From NCBI GenBank assembly GCA_903860135.1, contig CAIOPG010000011.1, positions 320-64,319 on the forward strand: a stretch of DNA of 64,000 nucleotides. Reading direction: 5' to 3'. The notes under the pieces were generated by a model. It was given only the letters and a program-made list of their open reading frames with translations, was not told where the DNA came from and searched no databases. Positions 9,441-47,498 of the stretch are shown piece after piece; position 1 is the first letter of the stretch, and every line of letters starts with the position of its first letter. The DNA is from Candidatus Omnitrophota bacterium. Its GTDB lineage: Bacteria > Omnitrophota > Gorgyraeia > Zapsychrales > Fredricksoniimonadaceae. A program made the translations under genes and the position numbers.

Positions 9441-9480
9441 TAATTAAAATCATTATAAAACGGTGGTTTTTAATGTGTCT

Positions 9481-9509
9481 ATTATGTTTAATATCATTAA
9501 ATACTTCAA
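9481..9509 (-). promoter_or_regulatory. Candidate sigma70-type promoter for the giant gene (minus strand: -35 TTGAAG, 17-nt spacer, -10 CATAAT)
   Basis: Reverse complement of 9481-9509 reads ttgaag-N17-cataat, about 35-70 nt upstream of the candidate start codons, in an AT-rich intergenic region. Confidence 0.3.
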
Positions 9510-9590
9510 TAAAATTCTAAGAATCTTTTAAGAAATTATTTTTTCTTTCGGTAAGAAAGAATTAAGCATATCCTCGTCGAGGAACATGGT

Positions 9591-11219
9591 TCACGGAGAA
9601 CTCCGCGCGAATCGCGCACCATAATAAATGCCTGCCGTGGCATCACGTCTTTGTTTAAATCCTGAACTGTCAGGGTCTTTGACAGCATACGTTCTGGCAG
9701 ATATCTGGAAATTCCTGATATTGGCTGTTTGAAAATCACCGCCGCGATACCCGATACCGATGGTTTTGTTAACCCCGCAGCGCGCATCGCTCATATCTAT
9801 GCCAGGCCAATCAACATTGGTCGCATTGCCTTCATGCCCAGAAAAACTGGAGAGTTCACCATCGCCGTGTGTCCCCAAAAACTGCCGGCCTTCTGCGCGG
9901 CCTATCGTGACCACAGGCTCTGCCAGATTACCTGAAAGTTCCATATTCCCGTAGTAACCGGCGCCGCTCGTCGTGCGTGAGGTGGAACTTTCAGCAAATA
10001 TCCCCGCGCGCAAAGGGCCTTTTTGCCCTTCAGCAATGCCGCCAGCACGGCCATCGCCAGACGTCCATCCCAGGGCATTGCGGTTTAAATTCACAGCACC
10101 GTCAAAAAGTGCTTCCGTACCATTCTCGTCGTCATTTGCAGGAAAAATCTGGGCGGCTTCCGCCGCATTATAACTTGTAGTTCCCCAAGCAAATTCATCA
10201 GCGACAGGATTCACGTCGACGCCTCGCGCGGCTTTTTCAAATTCAAGTTCTGTCATCGGACGTAACCCAGCCCAGTCTGCATAAGCCGCCGCATCAGGCC
10301 AGGAAACATAACTCATCGCACGGGCCGGTCTTGTCGTGATCGCTGCCTTTGAAGGAAAAAGAGGATCCCATGCCATGGTATTGCGATCAACGACACGGGT
10401 AGAATTCTTGCCCCCCTCGACAGCGGATGTTATATCCCTGGAATGTTTGGCCGCTATTGACAATGTATTAAAGAAAGCCACCCATTCGCCTTCTGTCAAT
10501 TCATACTTCATCAAATAAAAAGACTTGTACCCTTTGGGGAATGAGTTCGGCAGTAAAAAGATACTGCCTGAATTATTTTCACCGGAAGCACCTGTTGAAT
10601 CATAATAAAATCCGCCAGAAGGCGTGCTTGTCGTGGTAATGGCATTTTCACTGGAAACATACCAAGGGCTATCATCCGCTGTCCCTTTTTTAAAACGGAA
10701 GGGTGATGCGCTGGCTCCATCGCCTGCAAAGAATGCCCCTTCGGGAATATAAACCATTTCAATCCCAAAAACTTTAGTCAATGTATTGGCCGCCATAGCT
10801 GTATCGTCAGAAAGACCATCTTGGGCATAATTCCAAACAAAATGAACCCCATTGGCTTGTACATATCCTGCCGCTATATCCGTTCTGCGAAGAAAAAAAC
10901 CTTTCAAATCCTGAGGAACAAAAACCTCAACACATTGCGGAGCAATAAATCCAGCTGGATTCAAACCCGCCCCCCCCATGCTGGCATGATGCCAAGTTTG
11001 GCCTGCATCTGTTGAATACTTCATGAATATCCATGCCGCGTCATGTGACAATATTGTCCGCCAGCTGTTATTCTGCTGGATATCAACAGTAAAAGTCATC
11101 CGATGAGCAGATGATTCATTTTTATAAAGGTCAAAATGATTTAAAACAAGATTATTAGCAAAAGCAGGGATCGTGCACGAAAGGATTACAAAAACGATAA
11201 GAACAATTTTTTTTAACAT
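9591..11219 (-). CDS. Secreted protein with C-terminal FGE-sulfatase (formylglycine-generating enzyme / SUMF1-like, GldK/PorK-type) domain
   Basis: N-terminal signal peptide MLKKIVLIVFVILSCTIPAFA. Motifs WPDAAAYADWAGLRPMTELEFEKAARG, GYYGNMELSGN and YRGGDF match the FGE-domain signature. Confidence 0.7.
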   Translation of the reverse strand: MLKKIVLIVFVILSCTIPAFANNLVLNHFDLYKNESSAHRMTFTVDIQQNNSWRTILSHDAAWIFMKYSTDAGQTWHHASMGGAGLNPAGFIAPQCVEVFVPQDLKGFFLRRTDIAAGYVQANGVHFVWNYAQDGLSDDTAMAANTLTKVFGIEMVYIPEGAFFAGDGASASPFRFKKGTADDSPWYVSSENAITTTSTPSGGFYYDSTGASGENNSGSIFLLPNSFPKGYKSFYLMKYELTEGEWVAFFNTLSIAAKHSRDITSAVEGGKNSTRVVDRNTMAWDPLFPSKAAITTRPARAMSYVSWPDAAAYADWAGLRPMTELEFEKAARGVDVNPVADEFAWGTTSYNAAEAAQIFPANDDENGTEALFDGAVNLNRNALGWTSGDGRAGGIAEGQKGPLRAGIFAESSTSRTTSGAGYYGNMELSGNLAEPVVTIGRAEGRQFLGTHGDGELSSFSGHEGNATNVDWPGIDMSDARCGVNKTIGIGYRGGDFQTANIRNFQISARTYAVKDPDSSGFKQRRDATAGIYYGARFARSSP

Positions 11220-11250
11220 AGTTTTTATTCGAGGTTAAGGGTTGATCAGC

Positions 11251-12831
11251 CTACAGGCCTTCCGCCGAACGGACACCGCGCCCGCCATAGGTAGATGTGG
11301 CATCAGAGGAACTTGATGCCGCTTCACTGCGATCTGAGATCGAAAGATGTGTTGACGCGTCATTCCATGATCCACCACGAAAACCAGCACCAGCCGTTGT
11401 TGTGATACCTCGGGACACATCCATATTTAATCCTGGCCATGAGATTGAATCAGCATTGCCTTCAAAACCTGACGCCGTTGTTAACACGCCATCACCGTTA
11501 GCACGCGTAAAAACAAGCCCCGCCGACAAACCAACGGACACGGCCCATTCTTTCGCATTGCCTGAAAGTTCCATGGCACCATAACTGCCGGCACCGGAAA
11601 GAATGCGGTCGGTAGAATCCGTGGCAAAAATACCGCCACGTAAGGTGCCCCGACGATAAGCTGTTCCAAGAGCGGCGTCTCCGCCAGAAATCAACGTTCC
11701 GCCGAAATGGGCATTAGCACCATTAGTATTTGATGACTCAAGCCCATCTTCAGCACTGTTTGAAAGTGCTGTCAGTGGCTGGATGTCCGTTGTCCCCCAG
11801 GCAAATTCACCATTTACAGGGAGATAGGGACCGCGCGCCGCTTTTTCAAATTCAAGCTCAGTGATCGGCCTTAACCCCGCCCAATCGAGAAAGGCACACA
11901 AATCAGGCCAAGATAAAAACGTCATGGCTCTGTTTGGCCGCTCACTCGAGCACATCAACGGTGACCCAGCACAGGCTATTGTATTACGGTCAATCACAGC
12001 GTCAGCATTTTTATGTGATACGTTTGTAACATCATGATTGGCACGGCCCGGCGCAGATAATGAATTGATAAATTCAACCCATTGTCCTTCTGTTATTTCA
12101 TATTTCATCATATAAAATGCTTCAAACCCTTTAGGGAAAGTAGCGGGAATTATAAATGCAGAACCTGAAGCAAATTCACCGTTATTGCCTGCTGAAACAT
12201 AATAATAGGCATTTGAAGATGCGGCTGATACATTGATGGCAGACTCACTGGTGATGGGCCAAGGATTGTTATCAACACCGCCACGTTGAAACGCAGCCGC
12301 TGACGCAGCATAATCCCCGGCGTAAAACATCCCGCGTGGAACATAGACCATTTCATAAGCTGTAACAGTGGCAGTCACTTGACTTTCAGCACTTAAACCA
12401 GCTGTTTCATAATTAACAGTCAGCATCACATTCGTTGTTGCTACAGCCGAAGACATATGATTGGAAGTACGACGAATAAAAGCACCAACTTTATCGGAAG
12501 GAATCTGAATCTCAAGTTCAGTATTGGAACCGGCGGAAACACCGGCAGGATTTAAACCATTGATCGATAGCCGGCACAGCTTCTTTTCAGGTGATGCTGC
12601 GGTTACATCCTGCAAATGAACGGTAACCCAAGCCGCATCATGATTGATCTTGTTCCGCCAAGAGTTTTGCCAGGCAAGATCAAAAAAAACAGCAATAGTT
12701 TTTGAATTAGTATCTCTTGAGCCAAGATGAACATTGGTGACTTTTAAATCATTAGCCCATGCGCCAAATGAGAAAAAAACAACACAAAAGAAAAACACAA
12801 CTCCTAAAATCCCTGAAATTCTAACGCGCAT
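11251..12831 (-). CDS. Paralogous secreted FGE-sulfatase-domain protein
   Basis: Signal peptide ...FSFGAWA/ND. WPDLCAFLDWAGLRPITELEFEKAARG, GSYGAMELSGNAKEW and FRGGSW motifs. Same architecture as the upstream paralog. Confidence 0.7.
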   Translation of the reverse strand: MRVRISGILGVVFFFCVVFFSFGAWANDLKVTNVHLGSRDTNSKTIAVFFDLAWQNSWRNKINHDAAWVTVHLQDVTAASPEKKLCRLSINGLNPAGVSAGSNTELEIQIPSDKVGAFIRRTSNHMSSAVATTNVMLTVNYETAGLSAESQVTATVTAYEMVYVPRGMFYAGDYAASAAAFQRGGVDNNPWPITSESAINVSAASSNAYYYVSAGNNGEFASGSAFIIPATFPKGFEAFYMMKYEITEGQWVEFINSLSAPGRANHDVTNVSHKNADAVIDRNTIACAGSPLMCSSERPNRAMTFLSWPDLCAFLDWAGLRPITELEFEKAARGPYLPVNGEFAWGTTDIQPLTALSNSAEDGLESSNTNGANAHFGGTLISGGDAALGTAYRRGTLRGGIFATDSTDRILSGAGSYGAMELSGNAKEWAVSVGLSAGLVFTRANGDGVLTTASGFEGNADSISWPGLNMDVSRGITTTAGAGFRGGSWNDASTHLSISDRSEAASSSSDATSTYGGRGVRSAEGL

Positions 12832-12897
12832 ACCACTCCTTTATTCGCTCGGCCTTTTCTTAGGAAAAAAAGCCTTTTCCAACAAAATAGGGATTTC

Positions 12898-13761
12898 TTA
12901 TCTGGCTACATTCTGATGACCTGAAAGTTCAGGCTTATCCAATTTTGAGTCAATATGACTCCGGAGCGCAAGCCTCGCCGCGATTATCTTTTCTTCAACT
13001 AACTTTCGATCTTCGGCCTGAGGTTTTAAATAAAGATACCATTGATAATGCTTAAGGGCCGTTTCCTGATCACCCACAAATTCACCACTGACATAGGCGA
13101 GATTGTAATGGCCATCAGCATCATAAGGTGTTAGATCAACAGCCTGATAATATTCGACCGCCGCACGCTGATACTCGCCTCGTTCAAAATATACGTTACC
13201 CATATTGTAGTGCGCCCGTGCCAGTTCTTCTTTGAACTTTTCATCTTCAGGAGCAGTATCTCCACCCTTTTGAAGAACTTCACCGGCTTTCTTTTCTACA
13301 TCAAACGCTGGAATATCCGAACTCACAGCAACGGGTTGCTGTACGACTTTTCTGTGACCTAAATCCTGCGAATCCTGCAGATCTGTTTCAAACTTCTTCA
13401 TCCGCACTTCAAAAGACTCCTGCTGTTGCGATAAACCAGATTTTAAAGCTTCGATTTCCTTTGTCTGTTTCACATTCTGGTTCTCGGCACGGCGAATTTC
13501 CTTGATAAACTCTTCCCGTTCACGGCTCATCTGTTCGACACGTTTCGCCTCAAATTCCTTTTCATTGCGCACACGCTCAAGTTCTTTCTTTAACATTTCA
13601 GGGTCAGATTGGGCGCTCTGCACAACGCCTGTGCCTGCAGCTAATACGGCGGCAGGTGCTGATAGGAACAGACCACCGATGACCGTAGCGAAAAGAAAAC
13701 CAAAATTAGTAATTCTTGATGGCCTCATAGAGAACCTCTCCCCGAAGAGTTTGACGCTCAT
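12898..13761 (-). CDS. Secreted coiled-coil / TPR-repeat protein (pilus or secretin-assembly-type accessory)
   Basis: Signal peptide, E/K-rich coiled-coil segment, and a C-terminal TPR-like YNMGNVYFERGEYQRAAVEYYQAV...YNLAYV. 4-nt overlap with the upstream secretin gene. Confidence 0.5.
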   Translation of the reverse strand: MSVKLFGERFSMRPSRITNFGFLFATVIGGLFLSAPAAVLAAGTGVVQSAQSDPEMLKKELERVRNEKEFEAKRVEQMSREREEFIKEIRRAENQNVKQTKEIEALKSGLSQQQESFEVRMKKFETDLQDSQDLGHRKVVQQPVAVSSDIPAFDVEKKAGEVLQKGGDTAPEDEKFKEELARAHYNMGNVYFERGEYQRAAVEYYQAVDLTPYDADGHYNLAYVSGEFVGDQETALKHYQWYLYLKPQAEDRKLVEEKIIAARLALRSHIDSKLDKPELSGHQNVAR

Positions 13762-15353
13762 TTGTTGTAGGCCTTAGACGGCTTTATTGTCCCGTCAGGT
13801 GCCTTGTAATTTTCTTTGCCGGTTAAAATGTGCGGTGTAATAAAAATTACAATTTCTGACGAGGAAATGCTATCCGACTCGCGACTGAACAATTTATCAA
13901 TATACGGAAGGTTCATCAGGATCGGAAGGCCTTTTTTGCTGTGGATCTTGTCGTCCTTGCGCAAACCAGCCATGATAATGGTTGTTCCATCTTCAACCAC
14001 AAGGGTGGTCTCAACTTCGGTTTTATTAACCTGCGGGATACCACCGCCCTTGGAGGTGATCTTGTCAACCACTGAAGAAATTTCAGGACGTAATTTCATG
14101 GTTATCATGCCGTCATCATTAATTGTCGGTGTAACATTCAGTTTTAAACCGACATCAATAAATCTGACATCTTCACTCGTGATCGCATTGTCACCCGTAC
14201 CGGAAACCGTGGAGATAATATACGGCACGGTATCACCAATATGGATGCGAGACTCTTCGTTATTAACAGCCATGATCTTGGGATTTGAAAGCAACTTGGT
14301 ATCACTCACCTGTTCCATGGCACGAATGTTAAAGGCAAATCTGTCCGCGTTAATATTCCCTACCGCGATCTGACCAAAGCTACTGGATAAATTATCCGTC
14401 GAAGACATACCACTTTTATCAAGAAAAATATTTTTAAACTGCAGGTTGGGAGTTGCTTTGTTACTCGAAGCGATGTTCCAGTCAATGCCGGCGTCATAAC
14501 TTGGCTTGAATATGACCTGCAGGATGCGCGCTTCGATAAGAACTTCCTTCGTTGGTTCATCTAAATGACGAACGATCTTTTCAACCTCGTCTTTACGCCC
14601 GGGGAACACACGCACCACAAGCTGGTTTGAGCGTTCATCGGCGGATATCGAACCGACGGATTTCGCATCAATACGGGCACGCAGTTTGTCTGCGATAATA
14701 TTAGCTTTGGCATACTGCAAATTGTAGACCAGTGTTTCCAACGGCTGCTCAATTTCAGCGAGAACTTTCTTCATCTTGGCAATGGAATCAGGTGTATCGA
14801 TCAATACGACCGCACCGGTATCTTCATCTATAATGATCTTTCCGACATTGCTTTTCATATTGTCAAGCGCGGCAAGGACATAACTGGGTTTGGCATATTG
14901 CAAACGGAACGTAGCCACTACGGTCTTGTCGCTGAATTGTTTGCCGAACATCGCTTCATATTCAGCCCCTGTCATCACTTGAATAATATTGTTCTGGATA
15001 CTGTAAGCCAACCGGCTTGAAATCGTTACGATATCCAGCGCATCCTTGATCGCGACATTGTCAAGGAGAACCGTTGTCCGGCCATCTACCGACGGGCTTA
15101 TAACAACATTAAACTCACCCTTCATGGCAAGGAACTTGAGCACATCTACGATATTCATGTCGCGCACATCCAGCACGATCTTGCGTGCCATGCGCTCTTC
15201 AAGTATTTCTTTCGGCTGAGTAATAACAAGTGGCTTTGGTTGTTCTGGCTCTTCAGCCGTTGCCGGGCATGATCGTGCGATCGCTATCAGCAATGCCATG
15301 CCAGCGCACAATGTCAACATGATCCTGCGGGGGGAATGTGTGTGGTTTGTCAT
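13758..15353 (-). CDS. Secretin (GspD/PilQ family outer-membrane channel)
   Basis: C-terminal secretin-domain motifs GDTVPYIISTVSGTGDNAITSEDVRFIDVGLKLNVTPTINDDGMITMKLRPEISS, VETTLVVEDGTTIIMAGL and SSEIVIFITPHIL. N-terminal signal peptide. Confidence 0.85.
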   Translation of the reverse strand: MTNHTHSPRRIMLTLCAGMALLIAIARSCPATAEEPEQPKPLVITQPKEILEERMARKIVLDVRDMNIVDVLKFLAMKGEFNVVISPSVDGRTTVLLDNVAIKDALDIVTISSRLAYSIQNNIIQVMTGAEYEAMFGKQFSDKTVVATFRLQYAKPSYVLAALDNMKSNVGKIIIDEDTGAVVLIDTPDSIAKMKKVLAEIEQPLETLVYNLQYAKANIIADKLRARIDAKSVGSISADERSNQLVVRVFPGRKDEVEKIVRHLDEPTKEVLIEARILQVIFKPSYDAGIDWNIASSNKATPNLQFKNIFLDKSGMSSTDNLSSSFGQIAVGNINADRFAFNIRAMEQVSDTKLLSNPKIMAVNNEESRIHIGDTVPYIISTVSGTGDNAITSEDVRFIDVGLKLNVTPTINDDGMITMKLRPEISSVVDKITSKGGGIPQVNKTEVETTLVVEDGTTIIMAGLRKDDKIHSKKGLPILMNLPYIDKLFSRESDSISSSEIVIFITPHILTGKENYKAPDGTIKPSKAYNK

Positions 15354-15961
15354 AACTTAATCGTTATCTCCTCGTTTGCGTAACTGAAGACCGCCCTGTC
15401 GGTGTAAATAGTCTTGACCGTAACTCCCTCAAGCTTGTCGCCTTCTCTCAGAAAACGCGTTTCTTTTGTGGTGAGATTTTCCAGCATAACTGTTGCCGAT
15501 TCTGGGATATCAAGCCAGGCTACCCCCACAAACTTGTATTTCGCCATTTTTGCCTGCATGACCACACGGTCTGAAGGCAGCGCCTGTTCAGCGGCCGCAC
15601 GCTTTTCAAAAGGCTGAAAAATATTCCGGGCCGAAACTTTGCCGAGATACCAAGAGGCTTCTTTCATCCGTGGAATAGATACCGAACCTTCGTCTTGCAC
15701 CACAGGCAAGTCAACCGCAATGCGCACCTGCGCATCGAGGCGGGAACGTCCGTTAAGCAATTCCATGACCATAAAAATAAATCCTGCCACAACGGTTAAA
15801 AAAAGAACAAGGTTGATCTGGCGCAATGAAACGGCAATCCTCGACGGAGAAGATTTTTTAGGGATCGAAGCAGGGGCAACAACCAACGCAGCCTCTTTGG
15901 CTTTTTGGGTAGCCTCGATGATCTTGAGAAGTTTTTCTTCTGCGGTTTCTTTCTTGGCCAT
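15350..15961 (-). CDS. GspC/PilP-like single-pass inner-membrane protein (secretin-associated)
   Basis: Cytoplasmic basic N-terminus, one TM helix (LVLFLTVVAGFIFMVMELL), periplasmic beta-rich C-terminus. 4-nt overlap with the secretin gene. Confidence 0.4.
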   Translation of the reverse strand: MAKKETAEEKLLKIIEATQKAKEAALVVAPASIPKKSSPSRIAVSLRQINLVLFLTVVAGFIFMVMELLNGRSRLDAQVRIAVDLPVVQDEGSVSIPRMKEASWYLGKVSARNIFQPFEKRAAAEQALPSDRVVMQAKMAKYKFVGVAWLDIPESATVMLENLTTKETRFLREGDKLEGVTVKTIYTDRAVFSYANEEITIKL

Positions 15962-16058
15962 CGTCGCTGTCGTTGGTTAAATCAGTTTTATATTAACTAC
16001 TTTTTCGTTTCAAGAACATTTTTATATTAACATAGAGGAAATGCCCCGCAAGTTGTTT

Positions 16059-36107: not shown

Positions 36108-36136
36108 TTGTCAACGGCGTAAATGCGGATAATAAT
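36108..36136 (+). promoter_or_regulatory. Candidate promoter for the helicase gene (-35 TTGTCA, 17 nt, -10 ATAAT-like) with a small dyad gccgtt/aacggc
   Basis: ttgtcaacggcgtaaatgcggataataatt directly upstream of the ATG at ~36163 and its aaggg SD. Confidence 0.3.
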
Positions 36137-36162
36137 TGACGCCCCAAAAAACAAGGGCTAGA

Positions 36163-38331
36163 ATGACGGCACTTATGCATTTTGAAGACCTTCTTGTCCG
36201 ACACAATTTCCCTCCGGCTTACCGGCAAGCCCTGCTGGCCGGAGGCATCACCATGCTCCATCCGCCCCAGGCCGATGCCATCCACGCCGGGGTGCTTAAC
36301 GGCACCAATGTCATCCTGGCTGTGCCCACGGCCTCGGGGAAAACGCTGATCGCGGAACTCGCGATACTGAAAGCCATCTTTGAAAAAGGCGGCCGATGCC
36401 TGTATATCGCCCCTCTTAAAGCCCTGGCCAGCGAAAAATACCGCGACTTCAAAAAAAAATACGAACCGCTCGGGATCAAGGTCGGCATCGCCATCGGCGA
36501 TCTTGATTCACCCTCGGCTTATCTGAAAGATTACCAGATCATCATCGCCACCGCCGAAAAGATGGACTCGCTCCTGCGCGCGCGTTCCCCCTGGCTTTCC
36601 AACGGGATCGCCGTCACGGTATTCGATGAGGTCCATGTCATCAATGATGCCAGCCGCGGGCCGACCCTCGAAATTCTTATTACACGCATCCGGCTGATGA
36701 ACCCGGAAATGCAGGTGCTGGCGCTGTCGGCCACCGTCGCCAATGCCCGGGAAATGGCTGACTGGCTGAACGCGAAAGCCGTGATCAGCTCCTGGCGGCC
36801 CATCCCCCTCCATGAAGGTATTTATTACAACAAGCGCCTGACCTATGAAAGCGGGCGCATCAAGATCCTCCATGAAGACGCACCCGATGAAACACAACAG
36901 CTGGTCATGGACACCTTGCGCGGCCAGGGGCAGGTGCTGGTCTTTGTCAATGCCCGGCGTTCCACGCAGTCTGTCGCCCGTGAGCTGTGCCGCTGGGTCG
37001 GGCCTTTGCTCACGCCCGAAGAAAAAGACATCCTGAAAACAGTTGCCAGCGACATCGCACCGGAAACATCCGCCACCAAAGTCTGTAAAAAACTGGCCGA
37101 AGTTGTCGTCCACGGGGTGGCCTTCCACCACGCAGGGCTCAAGCCGGACCAGCGCGAAGCCATTGAGGAAAATTTCAAAAAAAACATCATCAAGGTCATT
37201 TGCTGTACACCAACGCTGGCCGCCGGCGTCAACCTCCCGGCTCGCCGCGCCATTATCCGTGATACCAAGCGCTATGTTTCCGGCGCCGGCTCTGTCTTCA
37301 TCGCGGCATCGGAATACAAGCAGTGCGCCGGCCGCGCAGGCCGCCCGCAATACGATGAATACGGTGAAGCTGTCCTGATCGCCAAATCGCTTTCGGAACA
37401 GGATGCCCTGTTTGACCGCTTTATTCTGGCGCCGCCCGAACCGGTCATCTCCAAACTTTCCGACGAAGCCCAGTTGAGGCGTCACGTTCTGGCCTCGGTG
37501 GCCGGCGGGTATGTCCATGATGTCAACGGCATGTTTGAATTCCTTGAACACACCTTCCTCGCCCATCAGCATAAAGGCGCGAACCTGATCGAACTTGTGG
37601 GCGGCATCTTTGATTTTCTGCACCGGGAACAATTCATCGACAAAAGCGGTTTTAGGTTCTTCCCGACGCCCTTTGGCGCCCGGGTCAGCCGCCTGTACAT
37701 CGACCCTGTTTCGGCTTTAGTGTTAAAGAAAGGCCTGGCCCGCATTGCCGCCGGAACCAATTTCTCGTCGATCGGCATCTTGCACCTTATCTGCTCGTGC
37801 CCGGACAGCGAACGCCTGTCCGTCGGCAAGAAAGGCCTGGAAGAACTTGAAGATTTCGGTAACAAGGTGGCCGATGAGCTGGTCATGACCCGTGAAGATA
37901 TCCAGTCCCTGCAGGATTATTACACATCGCTTGGCGTGCTTAAAACCGTCTGGATGCTGTTACGCTGGATGGATGAAGAAAAAGAAGAAGCTGTTTGCGA
38001 GCGCTTCGACATCGGGCCAGGCGACATTTTCCGCCACACCGAATCCGCCCAATGGCTCGTCTACGCCGCGCAATCGATCGCTGAAGTTTATCAGTTCAAG
38101 AAACTGACCCATTTTCTGGAAGGCTTAAAGAACCGCGTGCGCTACGGCATCAAGGCAGAACTGCTCGAACTCGCCGGGCTCAAAGGTATCGGCCGCATCC
38201 GCGCCCGCGTCCTTTTCGACCACGGCTACCAGACCCGCGCCGATTTCAAGAACGCCACCGAAACCGACCTCGCCCCCATCAAAACCATCGGCCCGGCGCT
38301 GGCGAAGGATATTTTGCGGCAGGTGGGATGA
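36163..38331 (+). CDS. Hel308/Ski2-type superfamily 2 DNA helicase (DEVH box, C-terminal HhH)
   Basis: Walker [15 protein letters not shown] ([10 protein letters not shown]), motif [15 protein letters not shown]-terminal [13 protein letters not shown] HhH. The track start 36136 is an alternative (TTG). The ATG at 36163 has an SD. Confidence 0.8.
38116..38155 (+). repeat. Left copy of an imperfect direct repeat (attL-like) inside the helicase 3' coding region
   Basis: ctggaag(gcttaaag)aaccgcgtgcgCtacggcatcaagg matches 48190-48221 except for an 8-nt indel and 1 mismatch. Confidence 0.7.
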
Positions 38332-38421: not shown

Positions 38422-38706
38422 ATGCTTTATAAATGGGACATTGATAAGAATGCCTGGCTTAAAGAACATCGAAACGTTTCTTTCGAAGAAATCATTGGGT
38501 GTATCGCAGACCAGAAGATTATCGACGTGATCGAGCATCACAATCAACGAAAATATGCCCATCAAAAGATCATGGTTGTGGCATTAAACGGATACGCTTT
38601 TCATGTCCCATACGTTGAAGATCACGAAGGAAGTTGTTTTCTTAAAACAATAATACCAAGTCGAAAATCAACCAGAAAATATTTGGAGCATACTTATGAA
38701 ACTTGA
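38422..38706 (+). CDS. brnT: BrnT-family (DUF497) ribonuclease toxin
   Basis: 94 aa. WDIDKN...N..KH.VSFEEI family pattern. Overlaps the downstream antitoxin gene by 11 nt. Confidence 0.7.
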   Translation: MLYKWDIDKNAWLKEHRNVSFEEIIGCIADQKIIDVIEHHNQRKYAHQKIMVVALNGYAFHVPYVEDHEGSCFLKTIIPSRKSTRKYLEHTYET

Positions 38707-38971
38707 TAAAGAAGAACAGGCATTATTAAATTCTATTGAGAACAAAGAATGGATGCGGATTAAGAATTTTGAAAGCGAATCAAAAAAGTTACAACAGACC
38801 GCTATCAAAACCCTACGCAAAGATCAACGCATCAGCATTCGCTTAGCCAAGTATGATCTTGATGGGCTCAAGATGAAAGCCGTCGATGAAGGCATTCCCT
38901 ACCAGACAATTATTGCCAGTCTTATTCATAAATACATCACTGGCCGGATCGGCACGAAGATAGTTGCCTAA
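38696..38971 (+). CDS. brnA: BrnA-family antitoxin
   Basis: 91 aa. ISIRL...DLDGLKMKAVDEGIPYQTIIASLIHKY typical of BrnA (RHH-like C-terminus). Toxin-first order as in brnTA. Confidence 0.65.
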   Translation: MKLDKEEQALLNSIENKEWMRIKNFESESKKLQQTAIKTLRKDQRISIRLAKYDLDGLKMKAVDEGIPYQTIIASLIHKYITGRIGTKIVA

Positions 38972-39275: not shown

Positions 39276-40445
39276 TCACCGATTTCCTTTTGCACGATTA
39301 TGCGACTTGCATAACATCTGACAATTCTTGATATTTGTCCCACCACCCTTGCTCCATGCGGCGACATGGTCAGCGTCCATTTCAGCCAACTTCCAAGACT
39401 TGCTCTTGTTAGCATCATGCCCAAGGGCACAAAGGGGACAGTTTGACGCACCTTTTGCTTCAGCTTTTTTAGTCTGTGATTCAAAAATGGATCTCTTTGT
39501 TGCATCATCAAAAACTCGAACATCCAGCAATTTCGTATCCGTCGAACCGCCAAGGATGTACTCAAAAACACCTTTTCGATTTTTGACATAAGGATCACTG
39601 TGTAACTTTTTTACCTCGTCTGATACCTTGGCTGGACTATACGCCGTTGCGTGATACTCTTCATACAATCGTCCCCACTCAAGCCCGCGCATCTCGCTTG
39701 CAACATCGATAAAGACACTGGAAACCCATTCGATCACGCTGTTGAAATACCTTTTAAGTTCGTTGATATCTGTGTCACGGCGATGCCGACACATATAATC
39801 GCCAATATTACCCTTACTAACCCAATCCAGCGCACATTCCAGAAATTCCTGCCGATTGGCACTACCAGAAATATACGAGCTCCATTTTTGGATATTGGCA
39901 TTTTGACTATTACTAAATTCTTCCTTACCAAGTGTAACAAATGACCCTGAATACACGGCGTTGAGTCGTTCTTGAGCATTGAGTGGGACGCCGACAATAT
40001 TAATTGTTTCGAACCACTCTTTTATCTCACTTTCCGTCCCTTCACATTCATAAATAAGCAGCTTTGTTTCCAATAGCCTATCTTTCTTATCTTTTGCCAT
40101 ACCACTAAAATACTGTGGCATACCGCTTTCATCTGTAATGGCAAATTTCCCCGTCACAAATCGTCCAAGACTGGTAATGCGCTGTTGCCCGTCTAAGACT
40201 TCCAGTTTACTATCGTTGACTTTATTGAAATAAATCAATCCTATAGGGTACCCCTTGAGGACTGATGCGATGACAGCCATTTCTTTCCTGCCGCCGTCAG
40301 AAACATAAATGTAGTTACGCTGATACTCTGGTTGGATAGTCAATTTACCAGATAAGCCGAATAGACCCTTGCCTTCAAGTTCGTTATAAACAAAACCTTC
40401 GCAAATATCTCTAACAGTAATACTCGTCTTAAGCGTTGCTTCCAT
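39276..40445 (-). CDS. DUF262 (ParB-like/GmrSD N-terminal) - HNH nuclease fusion protein
   Basis: N-terminal DGQQRITSL motif (DUF262 DGQQR). C-terminal CPLC...[35 protein letters not shown] motif. ATG overlaps the methyltransferase stop by 17 nt. Confidence 0.75.
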
Positions 40446-41634
40446 AATTCTTCCTATGTCTTATAAGTACTCTTTGATAAACTTTCTCCATTAATCCGTT
40501 TTGAATAATCACCCCACTCGCATTCAAATCATATGTTCCCTTTTTCCCAAATTTATCTAGATATGCCGTCTTGCATTCTACAGTTGAATATTTTTTACTT
40601 TTTAAATTATAAAGATCTTCATTCTCACACATACCCAGTATCTCAAATTGATCAGGATTATACTTGTCCAGAAAACTAATCGGCACTCCCATTACGCCGT
40701 CATAATCACTCGGGATAGAATCGGTAAACGATACTTCTATAGCATCATAATTATCGTATTTATCATACTTTCTTTTGCCGTTGATTTCTTTATGTTTACT
40801 GTGTTTTAGATTTTCCTTCATTGTCATTAGCGGTAGCGGTTTATGACGCCGCCCGTGGTCGAGATTAGTGAACCAACAAACACCCGGAACACGATTTACT
40901 TTTACGCCATTTCGTTCTCGTTCAAATTTATACGTATCATTATAAACAAAATCACTAGAAACTTGGAAATACATGCCTGTGTTAAAATTCGTTGCACCAA
41001 GCCACAATTTATTTTCCTTAATTTCTGGGAAAACATCTTTGTAAGTAATCGCATTCATATTGCCAATAATGACGAACTTCTTATTGTACTCAAAAAGTTG
41101 TTTAACATACTGCCGAAACAGGCTGAATGGTGGATTTGTTACGACAATATCTGATTGTTTAAGCAAATTTATACATTCATCACAGCGAAAGTCGCCATCA
41201 CCTTTTAGCGGCGTCCATTCGTTGTTTTTGTTTGCCTTTAACTGCCTGGCAACATCCTTCAAGTTAAACTCGCCATCACCATCGATGTCGTGCGCCTCGT
41301 TAATAATAAACTTGTTGGCGGTTACCTTGGGACGACCTTTTGATTTTGTGAAAGTTTCGTCACCAAACAATTCCAGCTGTGTATTAGCCACGGGCGAGGG
41401 TTTGTAGCTGGTGGTGATAAGCTGTTTTAGCCCAAGCTTATTAAAATTTAGCACGAAATAACGAAAAAAATTGCTTTCGAACGGATCATCACAATTGCAA
41501 TACACTACCTTGTCGCGAAATGTATCGGGGTCGTACTCCAAATACGCTTCCATCTCCTTCTGAATATCGCCGTACTGAGTATAAAACTCGTCATTCTTGG
41601 CCCTTTTCGCACTTGTAAGATTATCGTTTGCCAT
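40429..41634 (-). CDS. EcoRI-family N6-adenine DNA methyltransferase
   Basis: N-terminal [18 protein letters not shown]...VVYCNCDDP resembles the M.EcoRI N-terminus. NPPF catalytic motif ([10 protein letters not shown]). Confidence 0.7.
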
Positions 41635-41728: not shown

Positions 41729-41762
41729 AGTATAACATTTCACGAATTAACTCCCCCCCCCC
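41729..41762 (-). promoter_or_regulatory. Putative mod-operon promoter region: poly-G(10) tract (plus-strand poly-C 41753-41762) 18 nt upstream of a TATACT -10 box (41734-41729), ~95-125 nt upstream of the methyltransferase ATG
   Basis: Homopolymer cccccccccc read directly. The tract occupies the -35 position relative to the TATACT box. Confidence 0.35.
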
Positions 41763-41774
41763 ACACACATCCTC

Positions 41775-43136
41775 CTACGTCGGAAGAATATAACTAAATC
41801 CATCTTTCCCCAGCCGCGCGGTCAACTTGTCGATGATGGCCTGTGGATCATCCTCTGGCCCTGCCATAAATAACGGCTTGCCGTCGGGGCCGCCGAATTT
41901 AAACACGCGTTCCTTGCAGTCTTCGTCTTTCTCACCCAGCACATGCCGCGCCACCTCAAAATCAGGGTGCGGATCAAATCCCAGATTTTGCGCGTACGCC
42001 ACCGCCTGGTTCACCAGCCGCTGGGCACATCCGATGCAGAAATCATCCATAACCCCTGGATAATGCATCACCATGACGTCGATCTGTTTCCGGGTAAGTC
42101 CCGCTCCATAAGACGCTTGCTTGACGCCAAGACATTGCAAATCAATCAAATACACGCCAAAAATATAATGCGACGCACCCATCGCCCTTATCACCATAAC
42201 AGTCGCAAAAGCCCGCTCTTCCCAATCCTCATTAACAAGCACGTACCGCAACGGGTATTTTTCTGAAGCCTTGACTGCCTCCTTTATTTCCTGTTCTGTC
42301 AGATCCAGAGGAACCGGCGTCCGGACAGCGTCATCTTTGGCCATGCAACATTTCTTATATTTCTTGCCGCTACCACAATAGCAGGGCTCATTCCGGCCGA
42401 TCTTGGTTTTTGGTTCAGGCACTTCATCGTGATCGCCAGGACGCAGGCTTCTGCGCGGATATGTTCGCTTGGCTTTTACACCCAAAGCGATTTCCACATC
42501 CTCCAGATCACCCTGCACAGAGCAATCAACCTTGTCATACGCGAATGCTTCACGTATACAGTCGAGCGATTCCAGTGCGTTCAATCCTGTCAATCCATCG
42601 ATCAGGAATGCATTCAATGTCGAATCATTGATGAAAAAATACTTTAATTCATCTGTCAGGATCGTTACACAGCGATCTCTGACAGAACCACCTTCCTTAC
42701 CAATCAGACAAAGACTGCTCTCCGCCGCTACCCGCGCGAATAACCCGTTCCGGCGATCTTTCAAATACAAGGACAGACCCTCGATGGCACCAGCCCCGAT
42801 CATGGCCATAACCTCCGGCAATTCCTCGCCCACCCAATCGTCATCCTCCTCGTCGATCCGCCGCAATAAAGACAGCAATGCCCCGACAGCGTCAACGGCT
42901 TTCAGCTGTCCCAGCGCCCGCCACCCGTGCACCGATGCCCAGATAGTCAACGTATCACGCCCGCCTGAATGCAGGCGTTCATCCTCGATCATCCTGATCA
43001 GTTCAGGAACATGCTGTTCCCCCAGCCCCAGGCTTAAATAATCCGGCCATTCATCACCCAATTCACATTCCCCATAAACAAGTAATTGATCTACCGGACT
43101 GGCATACGCCGTATCAGCTGTCTCTTCACGCATCAA
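41775..43136 (-). CDS. SEC-C motif (zinc-binding) domain protein, 453 aa, function unknown
   Basis: Central EPCYCGSGKKYKKCC SEC-C motif. AGGGGG SD before the ATG. Confidence 0.55.
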   Translation of the reverse strand: MMREETADTAYASPVDQLLVYGECELGDEWPDYLSLGLGEQHVPELIRMIEDERLHSGGRDTLTIWASVHGWRALGQLKAVDAVGALLSLLRRIDEEDDDWVGEELPEVMAMIGAGAIEGLSLYLKDRRNGLFARVAAESSLCLIGKEGGSVRDRCVTILTDELKYFFINDSTLNAFLIDGLTGLNALESLDCIREAFAYDKVDCSVQGDLEDVEIALGVKAKRTYPRRSLRPGDHDEVPEPKTKIGRNEPCYCGSGKKYKKCCMAKDDAVRTPVPLDLTEQEIKEAVKASEKYPLRYVLVNEDWEERAFATVMVIRAMGASHYIFGVYLIDLQCLGVKQASYGAGLTRKQIDVMVMHYPGVMDDFCIGCAQRLVNQAVAYAQNLGFDPHPDFEVARHVLGEKDEDCKERVFKFGGPDGKPLFMAGPEDDPQAIIDKLTARLGKDGFSYILPT

Positions 43137-43776: not shown

Positions 43777-44652
43777 TCAACCCAATTCAAGTCGATCAAA
43801 GCGTTCAATCAGGATTTTATCAAAGTTTTTAGCGAGATCATGAGGAAGCCGGGATGCCTTGATCTTTTTGCGGAAATTTTCTTTCTGCCCGATAAAACGC
43901 GCCAAGCGTACTTTCTCAGGAACGCCTAGATTGTCAGCCAAAAGGTCGATCTCTTTTCTTCGGATATTGCTCTTGCGACCCTGGATGGTCAATGCTGACT
44001 CATCAGCCTCGTTCGGTAAAACAATCCTGGAACACACCAGATCATACGCAGGAGCAAGTCGGACATGACCTTCCTCGTCGTAAATGACCGAGTAATTCTT
44101 CATGTGCGCATCGCCGTTGGCAACAAGAAAGTTATAAACAATACGCTCAAAAAAAAGCTGTGTATCCAGCCCCGGGACTTCGGAAACAGCTTTCAATTTC
44201 CGCCCGATCTCCTCGACCGAACCGTCATATTTATTTTCTTTCCCAAGGATCTGCGCAAAATCTTCCTGATGGATCTTACGGCGTCCTTCCCGGTCAAAAC
44301 GCTTAACCACATACGCCAGACTCTTATCCTTCAAAGGCACCAGGCAATGCACAGGCACATCAATCCCAATATCTCCGGCAATATTCATGCAGAGTTCTTC
44401 ATTCTCCGGCAAATTCGCGAATGCTTGCACTTGCGGCTTCAAAATATACTGACCTCCCTCGCCAGCAACTTCAAGGCGAGGCTCACTATCTTTATCCGCA
44501 AGCCGGACTGAAAGCTTGGGCTGAACGCCGGAAATAGACATCTTCCCGACCATCTCCTGGGCTTTCAGAGAAACCCCGGCTAGCGTCAGATCAATGAACG
44601 GCTCACGATCGACACCAAAAACTTCTCGCCATATTGATCGCTCATGCTTCAT
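43777..44652 (-). CDS. hipT: HipT-like HipA-family Ser/Thr kinase toxin (kinase core only, lacking the HipA N-domain)
   Basis: SGVQPKLS, VKRFDR and LVANGDAHMKNYS (HipA catalytic GDxHxKN) motifs. 291 aa. Confidence 0.75.
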   Translation of the reverse strand: MKHERSIWREVFGVDREPFIDLTLAGVSLKAQEMVGKMSISGVQPKLSVRLADKDSEPRLEVAGEGGQYILKPQVQAFANLPENEELCMNIAGDIGIDVPVHCLVPLKDKSLAYVVKRFDREGRRKIHQEDFAQILGKENKYDGSVEEIGRKLKAVSEVPGLDTQLFFERIVYNFLVANGDAHMKNYSVIYDEEGHVRLAPAYDLVCSRIVLPNEADESALTIQGRKSNIRRKEIDLLADNLGVPEKVRLARFIGQKENFRKKIKASRLPHDLAKNFDKILIERFDRLELG

Positions 44653-44981
44653 ACAGCCCCGCTTTCTTTCACGGTAACAGCACCGATCGTATTCTTCCCT
44701 GTCACCAATAATATTCCGAATTCATCAGCCGGATCGATCTTCCTTGTCGCACAGACGATATCCCGATACCAACCCTCAGCGTTCATTCCCGCAAAGAAAG
44801 AAAATAATACCGCCGACTCAAAAGGCTCTGCCTGCAACGGCAAAGACAAAGAGACCGGTTTACCCGTCTTTAAATAATCAGCCCCATATACAAACCTGTA
44901 CCCGTCACCTGTTTCTTCCAGGATACCGGCCAGCTGATCATGAAGGAACACATCTGCTTTACGCTTCCTAACCCTTATCAT
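44649..44981 (-). CDS. hipS: HipS-like protein (stand-alone HipA N-terminal domain)
   Basis: VFLHDQLAGILEE...YRFVYGADYL resembles the HipA N-terminal domain. Likely start Met at 44981 (track start 45065 overlaps hipB). 4-nt overlap with hipT. Confidence 0.6.
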   Translation of the reverse strand: MIRVRKRKADVFLHDQLAGILEETGDGYRFVYGADYLKTGKPVSLSLPLQAEPFESAVLFSFFAGMNAEGWYRDIVCATRKIDPADEFGILLVTGKNTIGAVTVKESGAV

Positions 44982-45171
44982 TGCGCATAACCTCAAGATG
45001 ATGCCCCAAAAAATCCAGAACCTGATTGACCTTATCCAGGCGCACCGTAGCCTTGCCCTGCTCAAGCTCTCTCAGAAAACGAAGACCAACACCAGCACGC
45101 CGTGCAAACTCAACCTGGTCAAGGCCAGCCTTCTTCCGAAGTCCCTGTATTATTTTTCCGATGTCTTTCAT
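44968..45171 (-). CDS. hipB: HipB-like XRE-family HTH antitoxin of the tripartite system
   Basis: MKDIGKIIQGLRKKAGLDQVEFARRAGVGLRFLRELEQGK HTH. ATG at 45171 preferred over the TTG at 45276 because two operator-like dyads lie just upstream. Confidence 0.6.
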   Translation of the reverse strand: MKDIGKIIQGLRKKAGLDQVEFARRAGVGLRFLRELEQGKATVRLDKVNQVLDFLGHHLEVMRNDKG

Positions 45172-45180
45172 GATTAAAAT

Positions 45181-45272
45181 ATACACCCTGAAGGGTATAA
45201 AAGCAAGGCGCGTTGTTCGAGATATGGAGAATTTGGAAGATAAAAATGATTTATATACCCTTTCGGGTGTAT
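45181..45272 (-). promoter_or_regulatory. Two operator-like imperfect dyads upstream of hipBST: ATACACCC-tgaa-GGGTATA (45181-45199) and ATACCC-tttc-GGGTGTAT (45255-45272)
   Basis: Both share the half-site ATAC(A)CCC, spaced ~75 bp apart, 10-100 nt upstream of the hipB-like ATG. Confidence 0.45.
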
Positions 45273-45307
45273 TCAACTATTGTTTAAAGACAATATTTTC
45301 TGCCCTC

Positions 45308-45595
45308 TCACGTCGGGCGGAATATCTTTAATTTAATATCAGGGATCATTCGGAAATGTTTTTCATTGCCGGAAACAAGCAGAAGGTCATTCTCTGCCGC
45401 CGTTGCGGCGATGATGGCGTCCCCCGCCGTTAACCCATGCGACAACGCATATTGCTCCATATAAATCATGGCTCTGTGACCAATATTTTCAGTAATAGAA
45501 AGAACTGAAAAATGATACACGCTCAAGAACGACTTGCAAGAAGCCAATTGTTGTATGAACGTGTGGAGCGAGGTGGCGGCTATGTGACTATACAT
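45308..45595 (-). pseudogene. Remnant of a PIN-domain (VapC-like) toxin gene. Only the C-terminal part is present
   Basis: C-terminal PIN-like LTAGDAIIAATAAENDLLLVSGNEKHF. No N-terminal catalytic Asp region and no cognate antitoxin. Confidence 0.45.
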
Positions 45596-45680: not shown

Positions 45681-45849
45681 TTTGATAGAAAGAAGCCGAA
45701 CATGTTTAGCCTATGTCTTTTTTCGCCGGCCTTACCGCGCCACTCTTTCGGCTTCTCTCGGGGGATAAACCCCCTCGTTCCAGGCGAAAAAGCACTCGGT
45801 GCTCGGCGCGGCGAACGCGCAAACCGCTAAATATGCACAAGGAGCCAGT

Positions 45850-46170
45850 ATGGATTTTTTATTTGCAGGCGACAGGGATATCCTTAAAGAATTAGGATCC
45901 CGTGTCCGTCGTGCACGACTTGAAATGAACATATCCCAGTTAAAGTTTGCTTTGCAAGCCGGCGTTGCCATTGGCGTTGTTCAGAACTTTGAAGCCGGGA
46001 AGGCCTGCTCCCTCAAAAGTTTTATCCGAATGCTCAGGGTCACGCACAACCTGGCCAATCTTGCCTTACTGGTCCCTGAACCACTTCCAAGCCCTATTGA
46101 AGTAGCAAAAATGTCCGGAAAACAGCGACGTCGCGCCGGAGCTGCCAAAATAAATAAGGATAATCTATGA
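45850..46170 (+). CDS. hipB: HipB antitoxin (XRE-family HTH)
   Basis: ATG at 45850 preceded by AAGGAG. HTH LEMNISQLKFALQAGVAIGVVQNFEAGK. 4-nt overlap with hipA. Confidence 0.7.
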   Translation: MDFLFAGDRDILKELGSRVRRARLEMNISQLKFALQAGVAIGVVQNFEAGKACSLKSFIRMLRVTHNLANLALLVPEPLPSPIEVAKMSGKQRRRAGAAKINKDNL

Positions 46171-47498
46171 GCCCGGCAAATAAAGCCATTGATCAGGCCA
46201 ATGTATTTCTTTGGGGGGCACCAGTCGGGACGGTCATATGGGACAAAAACAGGGACCTTGGCATTTTTCAGTATGACAAGTCATTCGTAAGCAAAGGACT
46301 GCAGATCTCCCCGCTCTTGATGCCGCTTAGTGTTGATACGAAGTATTCGTTCCCGGCATTGGACAGGGTAACCTATTATGGCCTTCCGCCACTCCTGGCC
46401 GATGCGCTACCTGACAGATTTGGCAACGCTCTTATTGATATTTGGCTTCGGGATCAAGGAAGAGAGTTAAATTCTTTTTCTCCCGTTGAGCGACTTTGTT
46501 ATATGGGACAGCGCGCTATGGGCGCACTTGAATTCCGCCCGGCTACGGCACGGGTCTTGGATGAATCTATTAAGATCTCCATTGATGAAATGAGCGCACT
46601 TGCTCAAAAAATTCTTACTAAAAAGGCGCAACTGTCGGTGAATAGAAACAAGGACAGCGCCATGGCCATCCGATCCATTATTGAAATCGGCACCTCGGCC
46701 GGCGGCAACAGGGCAAAAGCTGTCATCGCCTGGAATAAAGAGACTGGGGAAATCCGTTCTGGTCAAGCAGATGCCTCAACAGATTTTGAACATTGGATCA
46801 TTAAATTCGATAATGCCAGTGAAAAGATATTGGGTGATCCGCATGATTATGGGCGCGTGGAACACGCTTACTACAATATGGCCATTGCGGCCGGGATTAA
46901 TATGAGCCCCTGTCATTTGTGGGAAGAAAACGACCAAGCGCATTTTATGACGCGCAGATTCGACAGGGGGAAAAGTGGCCAGCGACTCCACATGCAGTCC
47001 CTCTGTGCCTTGGCAGGGTATGACTTCAATCAGATCGGCAAATATCATTACGAAGAAGTTTTTGGAATCATTCAGAAGTTGCGACTTTGGCATCAAGCAA
47101 TCCAGGAGCAATACCGTCGCATGGTGTTTAATGTGATGGCACGGTGCCAAGATGATCATACAAAGAATATATCATTCCTGATGACCCCGGAAGGGAAGTG
47201 GGATCTATCCCCTGCTTATGATAACGCCTGGTCGTATAGTCCCAGGGGGCTTTGGACTGGTCAGCATCAAATGCGGGTCAATGGCAAGCGAGATGAGTTT
47301 ACCGTGCAGGATTTGATAGAAGCTGGGAAATCTTATGAGATTAGTAAAGCGAAGAATATGTGTGAACAAGTTGGCGATGCCGTAGCCCGTTGGTCAACAT
47401 TTTCCAGGCAATCAGGTGTTTCCAAGGAAATGACTCACCGCATTGCAAAAACACACAGGAAAGAACTGTTTATAAAAAGAAAATCTGGTTTAAAATAA
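46167..47498 (+). CDS. hipA: HipA Ser/Thr kinase toxin (full length)
   Basis: 443 aa. HipA N-domain plus kinase core (GAQLKF-like region, DDHTKNISF catalytic loop). Confidence 0.85.
   Translation: MSPANKAIDQANVFLWGAPVGTVIWDKNRDLGIFQYDKSFVSKGLQISPLLMPLSVDTKYSFPALDRVTYYGLPPLLADALPDRFGNALIDIWLRDQGRELNSFSPVERLCYMGQRAMGALEFRPATARVLDESIKISIDEMSALAQKILTKKAQLSVNRNKDSAMAIRSIIEIGTSAGGNRAKAVIAWNKETGEIRSGQADASTDFEHWIIKFDNASEKILGDPHDYGRVEHAYYNMAIAAGINMSPCHLWEENDQAHFMTRRFDRGKSGQRLHMQSLCALAGYDFNQIGKYHYEEVFGIIQKLRLWHQAIQEQYRRMVFNVMARCQDDHTKNISFLMTPEGKWDLSPAYDNAWSYSPRGLWTGQHQMRVNGKRDEFTVQDLIEAGKSYEISKAKNMCEQVGDAVARWSTFSRQSGVSKEMTHRIAKTHRKELFIKRKSGLK

Follow-up and report, generated by a model that had tools for sequence, protein, structure and literature searches.

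A methyltransferase with hypervariable segments and a conserved DUF262-HNH nuclease form a widespread gene pair, probably a restriction-modification module, in an Omnitrophota genome

We analyzed a stretch of 64,000 nucleotides from Candidatus Omnitrophota bacterium (assembly GCA_903860135.1, contig CAIOPG010000011.1, positions 320 to 64,319; hereafter the window), in which two neighboring genes on the minus strand encode an EcoRI-family N6-adenine methyltransferase (M) and a nuclease with DUF262 and HNH domains (R). M is a 401-amino-acid open reading frame (ORF) at 40429-41634 with the motifs VVYCNCDDP and TNPPF, and R is a 389-amino-acid ORF at 39276-40445 with the sequence LEVLDGQQR in its DUF262 domain and a C-terminal HNH motif (DADH...N...CKSHN). 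The two frames overlap by 17 nt (40429-40445). A prediction made earlier from the letters of this DNA (hereafter the original prediction) had described both ORFs, their sizes, the overlap, NPPF, DGQQR, and the C-terminal HNH, and the ORF list and Pfam agreed with it on every one of these points. The comparison with relatives points to an uncharacterized restriction-modification (R-M) variant. The features of the pair are as follows, with their basis in parentheses.

40429-41634, minus strand: M gene, 401-amino-acid EcoRI-family N6-adenine DNA methyltransferase (ORF, Pfam PF13651, PADLOC MTase_II)
41125-41139, minus strand: TNPPF codons, M residues 166-170, catalytic motif IV of N6-adenine methyltransferases (sequence; invariant in alignments)
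40885-40995, minus strand: hypervariable cassette 1 of M, about residues 214-250, putative target-recognition element (low identity, discrete types)
40480-40629, minus strand: hypervariable cassette 2 of M, about residues 336-385, putative target-recognition element between the conserved FEILG and the terminal YxRILIKHKK strand (low identity, gaps, types)
40429-40445, minus strand: overlap of the M stop region and the R start, 17 nt, translational coupling (ORF coordinates)
40450-40455, minus strand: AGGAAG, a hexamer resembling a ribosome-binding site, inside the 3' end of M and 4 nt upstream of the R ATG (sequence; putative function)
39276-40445, minus strand: R gene, 389-amino-acid nuclease composed of DUF262 (ParB/Srx fold), helical domain, and HNH (ORF, Pfam, PADLOC, AlphaFold model)
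39951-40340, minus strand: DUF262/ParB-Srx-like domain, putatively binding nucleoside triphosphate (NTP), R residues 36-165, with DGQQR (residues 85-89) at 40179-40193
39441-39950, minus strand: all-helical middle domain of R, residues 166-335, with conserved W240, F245, R310, and F312 (secondary structure of the model)
39279-39440, minus strand: zinc-ribbon HNH domain, R residues 336-389, with C336-x2-C339, D359 H360, N374 C375-x3-C379, and N383

The Pfam family EcoRI_methylase (PF13651) matched M over model positions 1-344 of 345 (E=7.8e-130, 433.6 bits against a cutoff of 26.4). In R, GmrSD_N/DUF262 (PF03235) was found at residues 36-165 (E=3.9e-19) and HNH (PF01844) at residues 354-389 (E=2e-6), and the Pfam search gave no match to DUF1524 (PF07510) in the window copy at E<=0.01. 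The statement in the original prediction that DUF262-HNH proteins are usually type IV, GmrSD-like enzymes conflates two architectures, since GmrSD-type nucleases combine DUF262 with DUF1524 and R carries a classical PF01844 HNH. Sequence comparison of M and R with PDB chains gave no match. Because M comes first and the reading frames overlap, synthesis of R is probably tied to that of M.

Linkage of the two genes was scored in 181 loci seeded with R, namely 80 genome loci (R 77-85% identical to the window copy), 21 viral-contig loci (R identity down to 59%), and 80 distant metagenomic loci that were seeded with distant representatives (R 35-42% identical). An EcoRI-family methyltransferase was located upstream of R, in the same gene order, in 172 of the 181 loci, including 73 of the 80 genome loci, where it was on the same strand, all 21 viral-contig loci, and 78 of the 80 distant metagenomic loci; the original prediction had made its reading depend on such co-conservation. 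The remaining nine loci are not assessable: four genome and two metagenomic loci have no upstream sequence, and three genome loci have cargo genes (an ATPase, Fic, and a transposase-like ORF) directly upstream of R, with M possibly lying beyond the DNA retrieved. Among viral contigs seeded with M, there were 44 pairs, 24 contigs that carry M only although 2-4 kb of sequence follows it, and two in which a truncated remnant of the nuclease is left, so that M was solitary in 24 of the 68 assessable contigs. In the 128 fully extracted pairs, a 4-nt overlap between M and R was the commonest arrangement (34 pairs), and 90 pairs were within about 26 nt of abutting. No conserved third gene was found, the commonest neighbor family occurring in 8 of the 181 loci. 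M and R are a real module, not a chance juxtaposition.

In about one fifth of the close loci, 0.6-3.6 kb of DNA is inserted between M and R on the same strand (L010, L019, L024, L030, L041, L045, L049, L051, L061, L071, L076, L080, and others). The inserted genes are of the Bro-N, RhuM, T5orf172, OLD-like AAA_15/TOPRIM, PIN_8, or Fic type. One study describes such embedded defense cargo in type I R-M, BREX, DISARM, and Hma systems, but not in a two-gene pair of this kind (bioRxiv 10.1101/2024.01.29.577857).

The methyltransferase motifs DEFYT, CDDP, and TNPPFS were at least 98% conserved among 129 M homologues. M is more divergent than R: in the subfamily of the window, the median pairwise identity was 60.6% for M versus 80.9% for R, and R was the more similar protein in 99% of pairs. 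The divergence of M is concentrated in two segments at about residues 214-250 (cassette 1) and 336-385 (cassette 2). Identity to the window copy was 23% in cassette 1 and 11-33%, with about 40% gaps, in cassette 2, versus 52-79% in the M core. Both cassettes occur as discrete, mutually unrelated types of differing lengths between near-identical flanks. Greedy clustering of the 129 M genes at 50% identity gave 29 types of cassette 1 and 66 types of cassette 2 (0-218 amino acids) in 102 combinations, and 47 combinations were present in the 70 M genes whose R proteins belong to a single subfamily of about 81% identity. The cassettes assort almost independently, with cassette 1 alone shared by 228 pairs, cassette 2 alone by 84, and both by 28.

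The cassettes are also uncoupled from R. At matched M-core identity, R identity hardly differed between pairs with matching and non-matching cassettes (84.1 vs 84.1 and 84.2 vs 83.8). Eight R proteins could be aligned over 389 columns with zero gaps and a mean column identity of 90%, while their M proteins carry four and seven or eight cassette types, and cassettes that are 72-76% identical were found with R proteins only 40-44% identical. No variable segment of R tracked the M cassettes, and, provided that the cassettes set specificity, the co-change of R and M expected of a classical type IIP system is missing. In N6-adenine methyltransferases, the hypervariable, recombining parts that lie outside the catalytic motifs serve as target-recognition domains, which in the gamma-type order follow motif VIII. 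If the cassettes are such domains, one invariant R is paired with many M specificities. The original prediction, which had a single sequence to work from, was right to treat the two genes as a pair; the modular, hypervariable M beside an invariant R, which argues against independent site recognition by the two proteins, was not visible in it. A single-sequence structure model of M had a predicted local distance difference test score (pLDDT) of 31.5 and was discarded.

An alignment of 50 full-length R homologues (33-62% identity) contained invariant or nearly invariant Q42-R43, D85-G86-(Q-Q)-R89, and Q158-E159-N162, as well as C336/C339, D359-H360, N374, C379, and N383 in the C-terminal part. 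This conservation suggests that a putative nucleotide pocket and the zinc-ribbon HNH site are intact. The AlphaFold model of R (pLDDT 92.5) has an all-helical middle domain between the two, and the fold of the N-terminal domain is similar to that of the NTPase domains in BrxU, SspE, and DndI, its closest structural relatives. Fold comparison of the helical domain (residues 166-335) gave no informative match; this domain may bind DNA or M. Within the subfamily of the window, every 20-residue segment of R was 62-98% identical to the window copy. The ratio of nonsynonymous to synonymous substitution rates (dN/dS) was about 0.05 for R and about 0.10 for M, with dS saturated. The saturated synonymous sites and the low ratio indicate that the conservation of R reflects purifying selection and not recent spread; the saturation also led us to reject recent horizontal transfer as the cause of the roughly 80% identity of R across phyla.

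In-frame fusions of M and R, with M N-terminal and R C-terminal, were found in three of about 1,000 scored relatives. In one of them (P0271, 717 amino acids; L265:5001-7154), a methyltransferase with intact DEFYT, CNCDD, and TNPPFS is fused in frame to the nuclease, and a second (P0272) has the same junction and keeps TNPPFS. The third (P0195; L264:5001-7067) has a degenerate methyltransferase-like half, in which DEFYT is lost and FPSF replaces NPPF, and this half may serve DNA recognition only. The table 11 translation of the L264 fusion gene differs from the query, possibly because a different genetic code is used. The P0271 gene is located inside a cluster (L265:1853-9256) with C-C_Bond_Lyase, PRTase_2/TRSP, StiP/PELOTA_1, and ATPgrasp_Ter, which are gene families of Ter-associated stress or defense clusters.

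The pair occurs very widely, catalogues already list it as type II R-M, and the window copy is an ordinary member. More than 544 species genomes, from Patescibacteria, Chloroflexota, Bacteroidota, Omnitrophota, Actinomycetota, Bacillota, Pseudomonadota, and other phyla, encode relatives of R with 77-85% identity, and a search with R representatives gave 429 clusters at 50% identity with E<1e-30. The best PADLOC match was MTase_II (PDLC03297, E=3.7e-105) for M and REase_II (PDLC03418, E=9.3e-81, model positions 6-371 of 372) for R; the latter model also matched ten diverse R relatives with 222-391 bits. The type II models for this family presumably derive from REBASE. The GmrSD-type models HEC-05/06, and likewise the Menshen model NsnA (positions 63-243 of 385) and PD-T4-2_A (positions 49-233 of 363), gave weak matches to the DUF262 part of R only. 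The term "unusual" in the original prediction does not apply in the sense of rare. Its suggestion of a methyltransferase-linked system agrees with the profile search, which placed R beside type II nucleases and not in a GmrSD-type family or one with an established canonical partner and no need of a methyltransferase.

Apart from PADLOC, annotation of the family is sparse. NCBIfam has no model for M or R, PHROGs contains the proteins of the pair in families of unknown function only, RefSeq names them "DUF262 domain-containing protein" (R) and "adenine-specific methyltransferase EcoRI family protein" (M), and the automatic annotation of JGI labels some R homologues McrA. Full-text literature searches returned no paper that describes a pair of a DUF262-HNH nuclease and an EcoRI-family methyltransferase. 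The DUF262 systems that have been reviewed are GmrSD, BrxU, SspE, Menshen, Dazbog, and PD-T4-2 (PMC10952713), and a 2025 survey of the ParB-CTPase fold called HNH fusions novel (PMC12704722). Pipelines that name R only as a DUF262 domain-containing protein would under-call R-M in many genomes, including those of Patescibacteria, enterococcal resistance megaplasmids, and plasmids of lactic acid bacteria.

The pair was also found on mobile elements, including 9-10 kb plasmids of Pediococcus, Apilactobacillus, and Moraxella, and Enterococcus faecium megaplasmids, where it adjoins optrA and erm(A). On pBN83-1 (NZ_CP142416.1 41992-53152; L187), it lies within a few kb of optrA, erm(A), and a fragment annotated as a type ISP R-M enzyme. 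An identical nuclease sequence is present on at least nine E. faecium plasmids. Flavobacterium phage vB_FspS_laban6-1 (NC_048834.1 10219-12581; L185:3778-6140) carries a complete pair beside the tape-measure gene, with R 75% identical and a 4-nt overlap; this virus has a full R-M system and not merely an escape methyltransferase.

Taken together, we regard the pair as a two-gene R-M module with protective methylation, with a probability of roughly 85%. In such a module, M would mark host DNA by N6-adenine methylation, and the HNH domain of R would cut DNA without the mark, its activity presumably being blocked by methylation. R was never seen alone while M was often solitary, which argues for protective methylation and against a type IV enzyme. 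The original prediction had likewise preferred protective methylation with a ParB-like NTPase/HNH effector, and this preference is supported by the dependence of R on M, by the solitary M genes, and by the assignment of the two proteins to MTase_II and REase_II. Its second reading, in which methylation licenses or inhibits the nuclease allosterically, may still hold.

For the way in which R finds its sites, we see about an even chance that R has no specificity of its own, is switched by a nucleotide, and is directed by M, as in type III or type IIC systems. R would then be a conserved, generic effector that is brought by M to unmethylated sites, probably in an M-R complex, and the two swappable cassettes of M would define which sites are recognized, a role played for Res by Mod in type III systems and, in fused type IIC enzymes, by the recognition domain that both activities share. 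Cleavage by the HNH domain would be licensed by the DUF262 domain, whose ParB/Srx fold would serve as a nucleotide-dependent switch like its counterparts in BrxU, SspE, and GmrSD; NTP gating is predicted from these relatives, and the domain might even be a nucleotide-gated clamp that releases the nuclease from the recognition site. Direction by M agrees with the invariant pocket of DUF262 and its structural kinship with NTP-gated BrxU and SspE, and also with the translational coupling and the existence of natural fusions. A classical type IIP pair could not tolerate one invariant R with many M specificities, so that the logic of types I, III, and IIC is the simplest, and the conserved NTP-pocket motifs make strict type II behavior, independent of NTP, doubtful. 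A more far-reaching version, which we offer tentatively, is that the family is a mis-filed R-M class and not type II, in which a two-cassette M recognizes the site and an invariant subunit with a ParB/Srx-fold NTP switch and HNH cleaves it.

Several points weigh against direction of R by M. That the cassettes would determine specificity is deduced from their position and allele-like behavior, and they might rather be surface loops that have diversified in response to phage inhibitors while every variant methylates one and the same site. The conserved helical domain of R, about 170 residues long, could itself read a fixed sequence. The type II label in the catalogue implies, by default, NTP-independent and self-sufficient recognition, and fusions are rare. 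In addition, for every palindrome of 4 or 6 bp and for words with an AATT core, the latter chosen from the specificities of EcoRI, MunI, and ApoI, we compared Markov-corrected observed and expected counts and found no consistent depletion in the window or in about 1.1 Mb of host flanks.

The most probable alternative is a classical, type IIP-like system, in which R itself recognizes a fixed sequence through its helical or DUF262 domain and is blocked by an independently acting M. The cassettes would then leave the core specificity unaltered, and DUF262 would serve DNA binding or dimerization. The filing of M and R under type II by PADLOC, the separate genes with M-first coupling, and the uniform conservation of R, which fits one fixed specificity, are in line with such a system; the dependence of R on M is equally expected from it, and HNH type II enzymes with separate methyltransferases, e.g., KpnI, are well established. 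Nevertheless, at least 47 unrelated cassette combinations in one R subfamily would all need to methylate the same site, the invariant NTP-pocket motifs and the M-R fusions would be left unexplained, and the cassettes shared by R lineages only about 40% identical do not fit. We consider a self-sufficient R possible but less likely than direction by M.

It is improbable that R is a sensor of the SspE/DndI type, which would bind methylated host sites, with N6-methyladenine (m6A) allosterically controlling the NTPase and nuclease so as to hold them off self DNA or prime them against unmarked DNA. BrxU, SspE, and DndI, to which the N-terminal domain is structurally closest, are indeed DUF262 nucleases that read DNA modification, and the obligate link of R to a modification enzyme parallels SspABCD-SspE. 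In SspE, NTPase-driven activation is coupled to the recognition of phosphorothioates (PMC10952713; PMC13251355). However, R has a classical HNH instead of DUF1524 and no recognizable m6A-reader domain, and an invariant R would have to read the many sequence contexts set by the variable cassettes.

We give very little credence to a purely selfish addiction or homing cassette without a role in defense, which would be maintained on plasmids and islands by post-segregational killing. The pair is indeed carried by small cryptic plasmids, by megaplasmids next to resistance genes, and by a phage genome, and the window copy is situated in an island of low GC content that is packed with toxin-antitoxin modules. 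Such maintenance is nevertheless compatible with restriction, as classical R-M systems do both, and the cargo of defense type between M and R (OLD-like ATPase, PIN, Fic, RhuM, Bro-N) resembles that of defense operons, while orphan M in viral contigs suggests a phage countermeasure. Finally, a type IV, GmrSD-like modification-dependent nuclease beside a functionally independent methyltransferase can practically be dismissed, despite DUF262 with DGQQR, the weak partial matches to HEC-05/06, NsnA, and PD-T4-2_A, and the McrA labels, as M is clearly absent from none of the loci, in-frame fusions exist, DUF1524 is missing, the full-length best match is REase_II, and an m6A-dependent nuclease beside an m6A methyltransferase would be suicidal.

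Comparison with known systems shows where the pair differs from each of them. R shares the N-terminal DUF262 domain, with DGQQR invariant or nearly so, with the type IV enzymes GmrSD and BrxU (DUF262 plus DUF1524), whereas its C-terminus is a zinc-ribbon HNH (PF01844) without the (D/E)HxxP of DUF1524, its length is about 390 amino acids versus about 580, and it is linked to a methyltransferase, unlike the stand-alone type IV enzymes, whose polarity towards modification is the opposite. SspE (of SspABCD-SspE) and DndI (of DndBCDE-DndI) work with phosphorothioates made by a multi-gene pathway, whereas the mark here would be m6A made by a single methyltransferase; the nuclease domain also differs, and the present system has two genes without a conserved third one. 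Menshen (NsnABC) and PD-T4-2 are matched by the N-terminal DUF262 part of R alone, and again a conserved third gene is lacking here. DUF262 nucleases have so far been known through modification-triggered or modification-sensing enzymes (GmrSD, BrxU, SspE, DndI), and here the same module is found in what appears to be a methylation-protected two-gene system. The pair might thus be a simple and very abundant model for the coupling of modification status to HNH cleavage by a nucleotide switch.

In type III R-M systems such as EcoP15I, Mod carries the recognition domain and Res is a conserved NTP-dependent nuclease. The likeness of the pair to these systems is one of logic only, with a swappable-cassette M, a conserved R with an NTPase domain, and mod-first gene order, while the complex and the NTP dependence are predicted here. 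The parts are different: R is built from a ParB/Srx fold and HNH, without the superfamily 2 helicase motor and PD-(D/E)XK nuclease, and M belongs to PF13651 and not to the type III Mod family. Type IIC/IIG enzymes use one polypeptide and one recognition domain for both activities, to which the natural single-chain versions P0271 and P0272 correspond, although the window and nearly all relatives have separate proteins and the nuclease is an HNH with DUF262. M is in the same Pfam family as M.EcoRI, but R.EcoRI is a PD-(D/E)XK enzyme unrelated to R, and literature searches found no DUF262 NTPase-type domain in characterized HNH type II enzymes such as KpnI. If R is directed by M, the pair would represent a type III-like division of labor assembled from completely different parts, a natural and compact platform of reprogrammable specificities, and a further case of recognition-domain shuffling besides types I, III, and IIG. 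If the family is a mis-filed class, R would be unprecedented among DUF262 nucleases in being repelled, not attracted, by DNA modification.

In the window, the pair is located in a region of about 38-50 kb with a GC content of 0.37-0.49, versus about 0.52-0.55 in the surrounding DNA. This region is rich in toxin-antitoxin modules (38422-38971, 43777-45276, 45308-45595, and 45799-47498), comprising a BrnT/CopG-type antitoxin, a split HipA (Couple_hipA and HipA_C) with a helix-turn-helix partner, a PIN protein, and a second HipBA pair. A gene for a SEC-C-motif protein (41775-43136) is directly upstream of M, and the 140-nt spacer between the two contains a G10 homopolymer (41753-41762, minus strand) preceded by (GT)3, about 120 nt upstream of the M start. 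Phase variation through this tract was considered and rejected, as the tract is equally long in three independent assemblies.

Further genes of the window were noted outside of the pair. At 36136-38331, a 731-amino-acid Hel308/Ski2-type helicase with an "archaeal helicase domain 4" is encoded among bacterial-type neighbors (a ribosome hibernation factor, an RsmE-like methyltransferase, and an AsmA/TamB-like protein). Its NCBIfam scores are high yet under the equivalog cutoffs, and its HamB-like PADLOC matches probably reflect generic helicase similarity. Additionally, positions 1-16000 have a GC content of 0.39-0.49 and a strongly negative GC skew, versus a GC content of 0.50-0.55 at 16-38 kb, and may be another acquired region.

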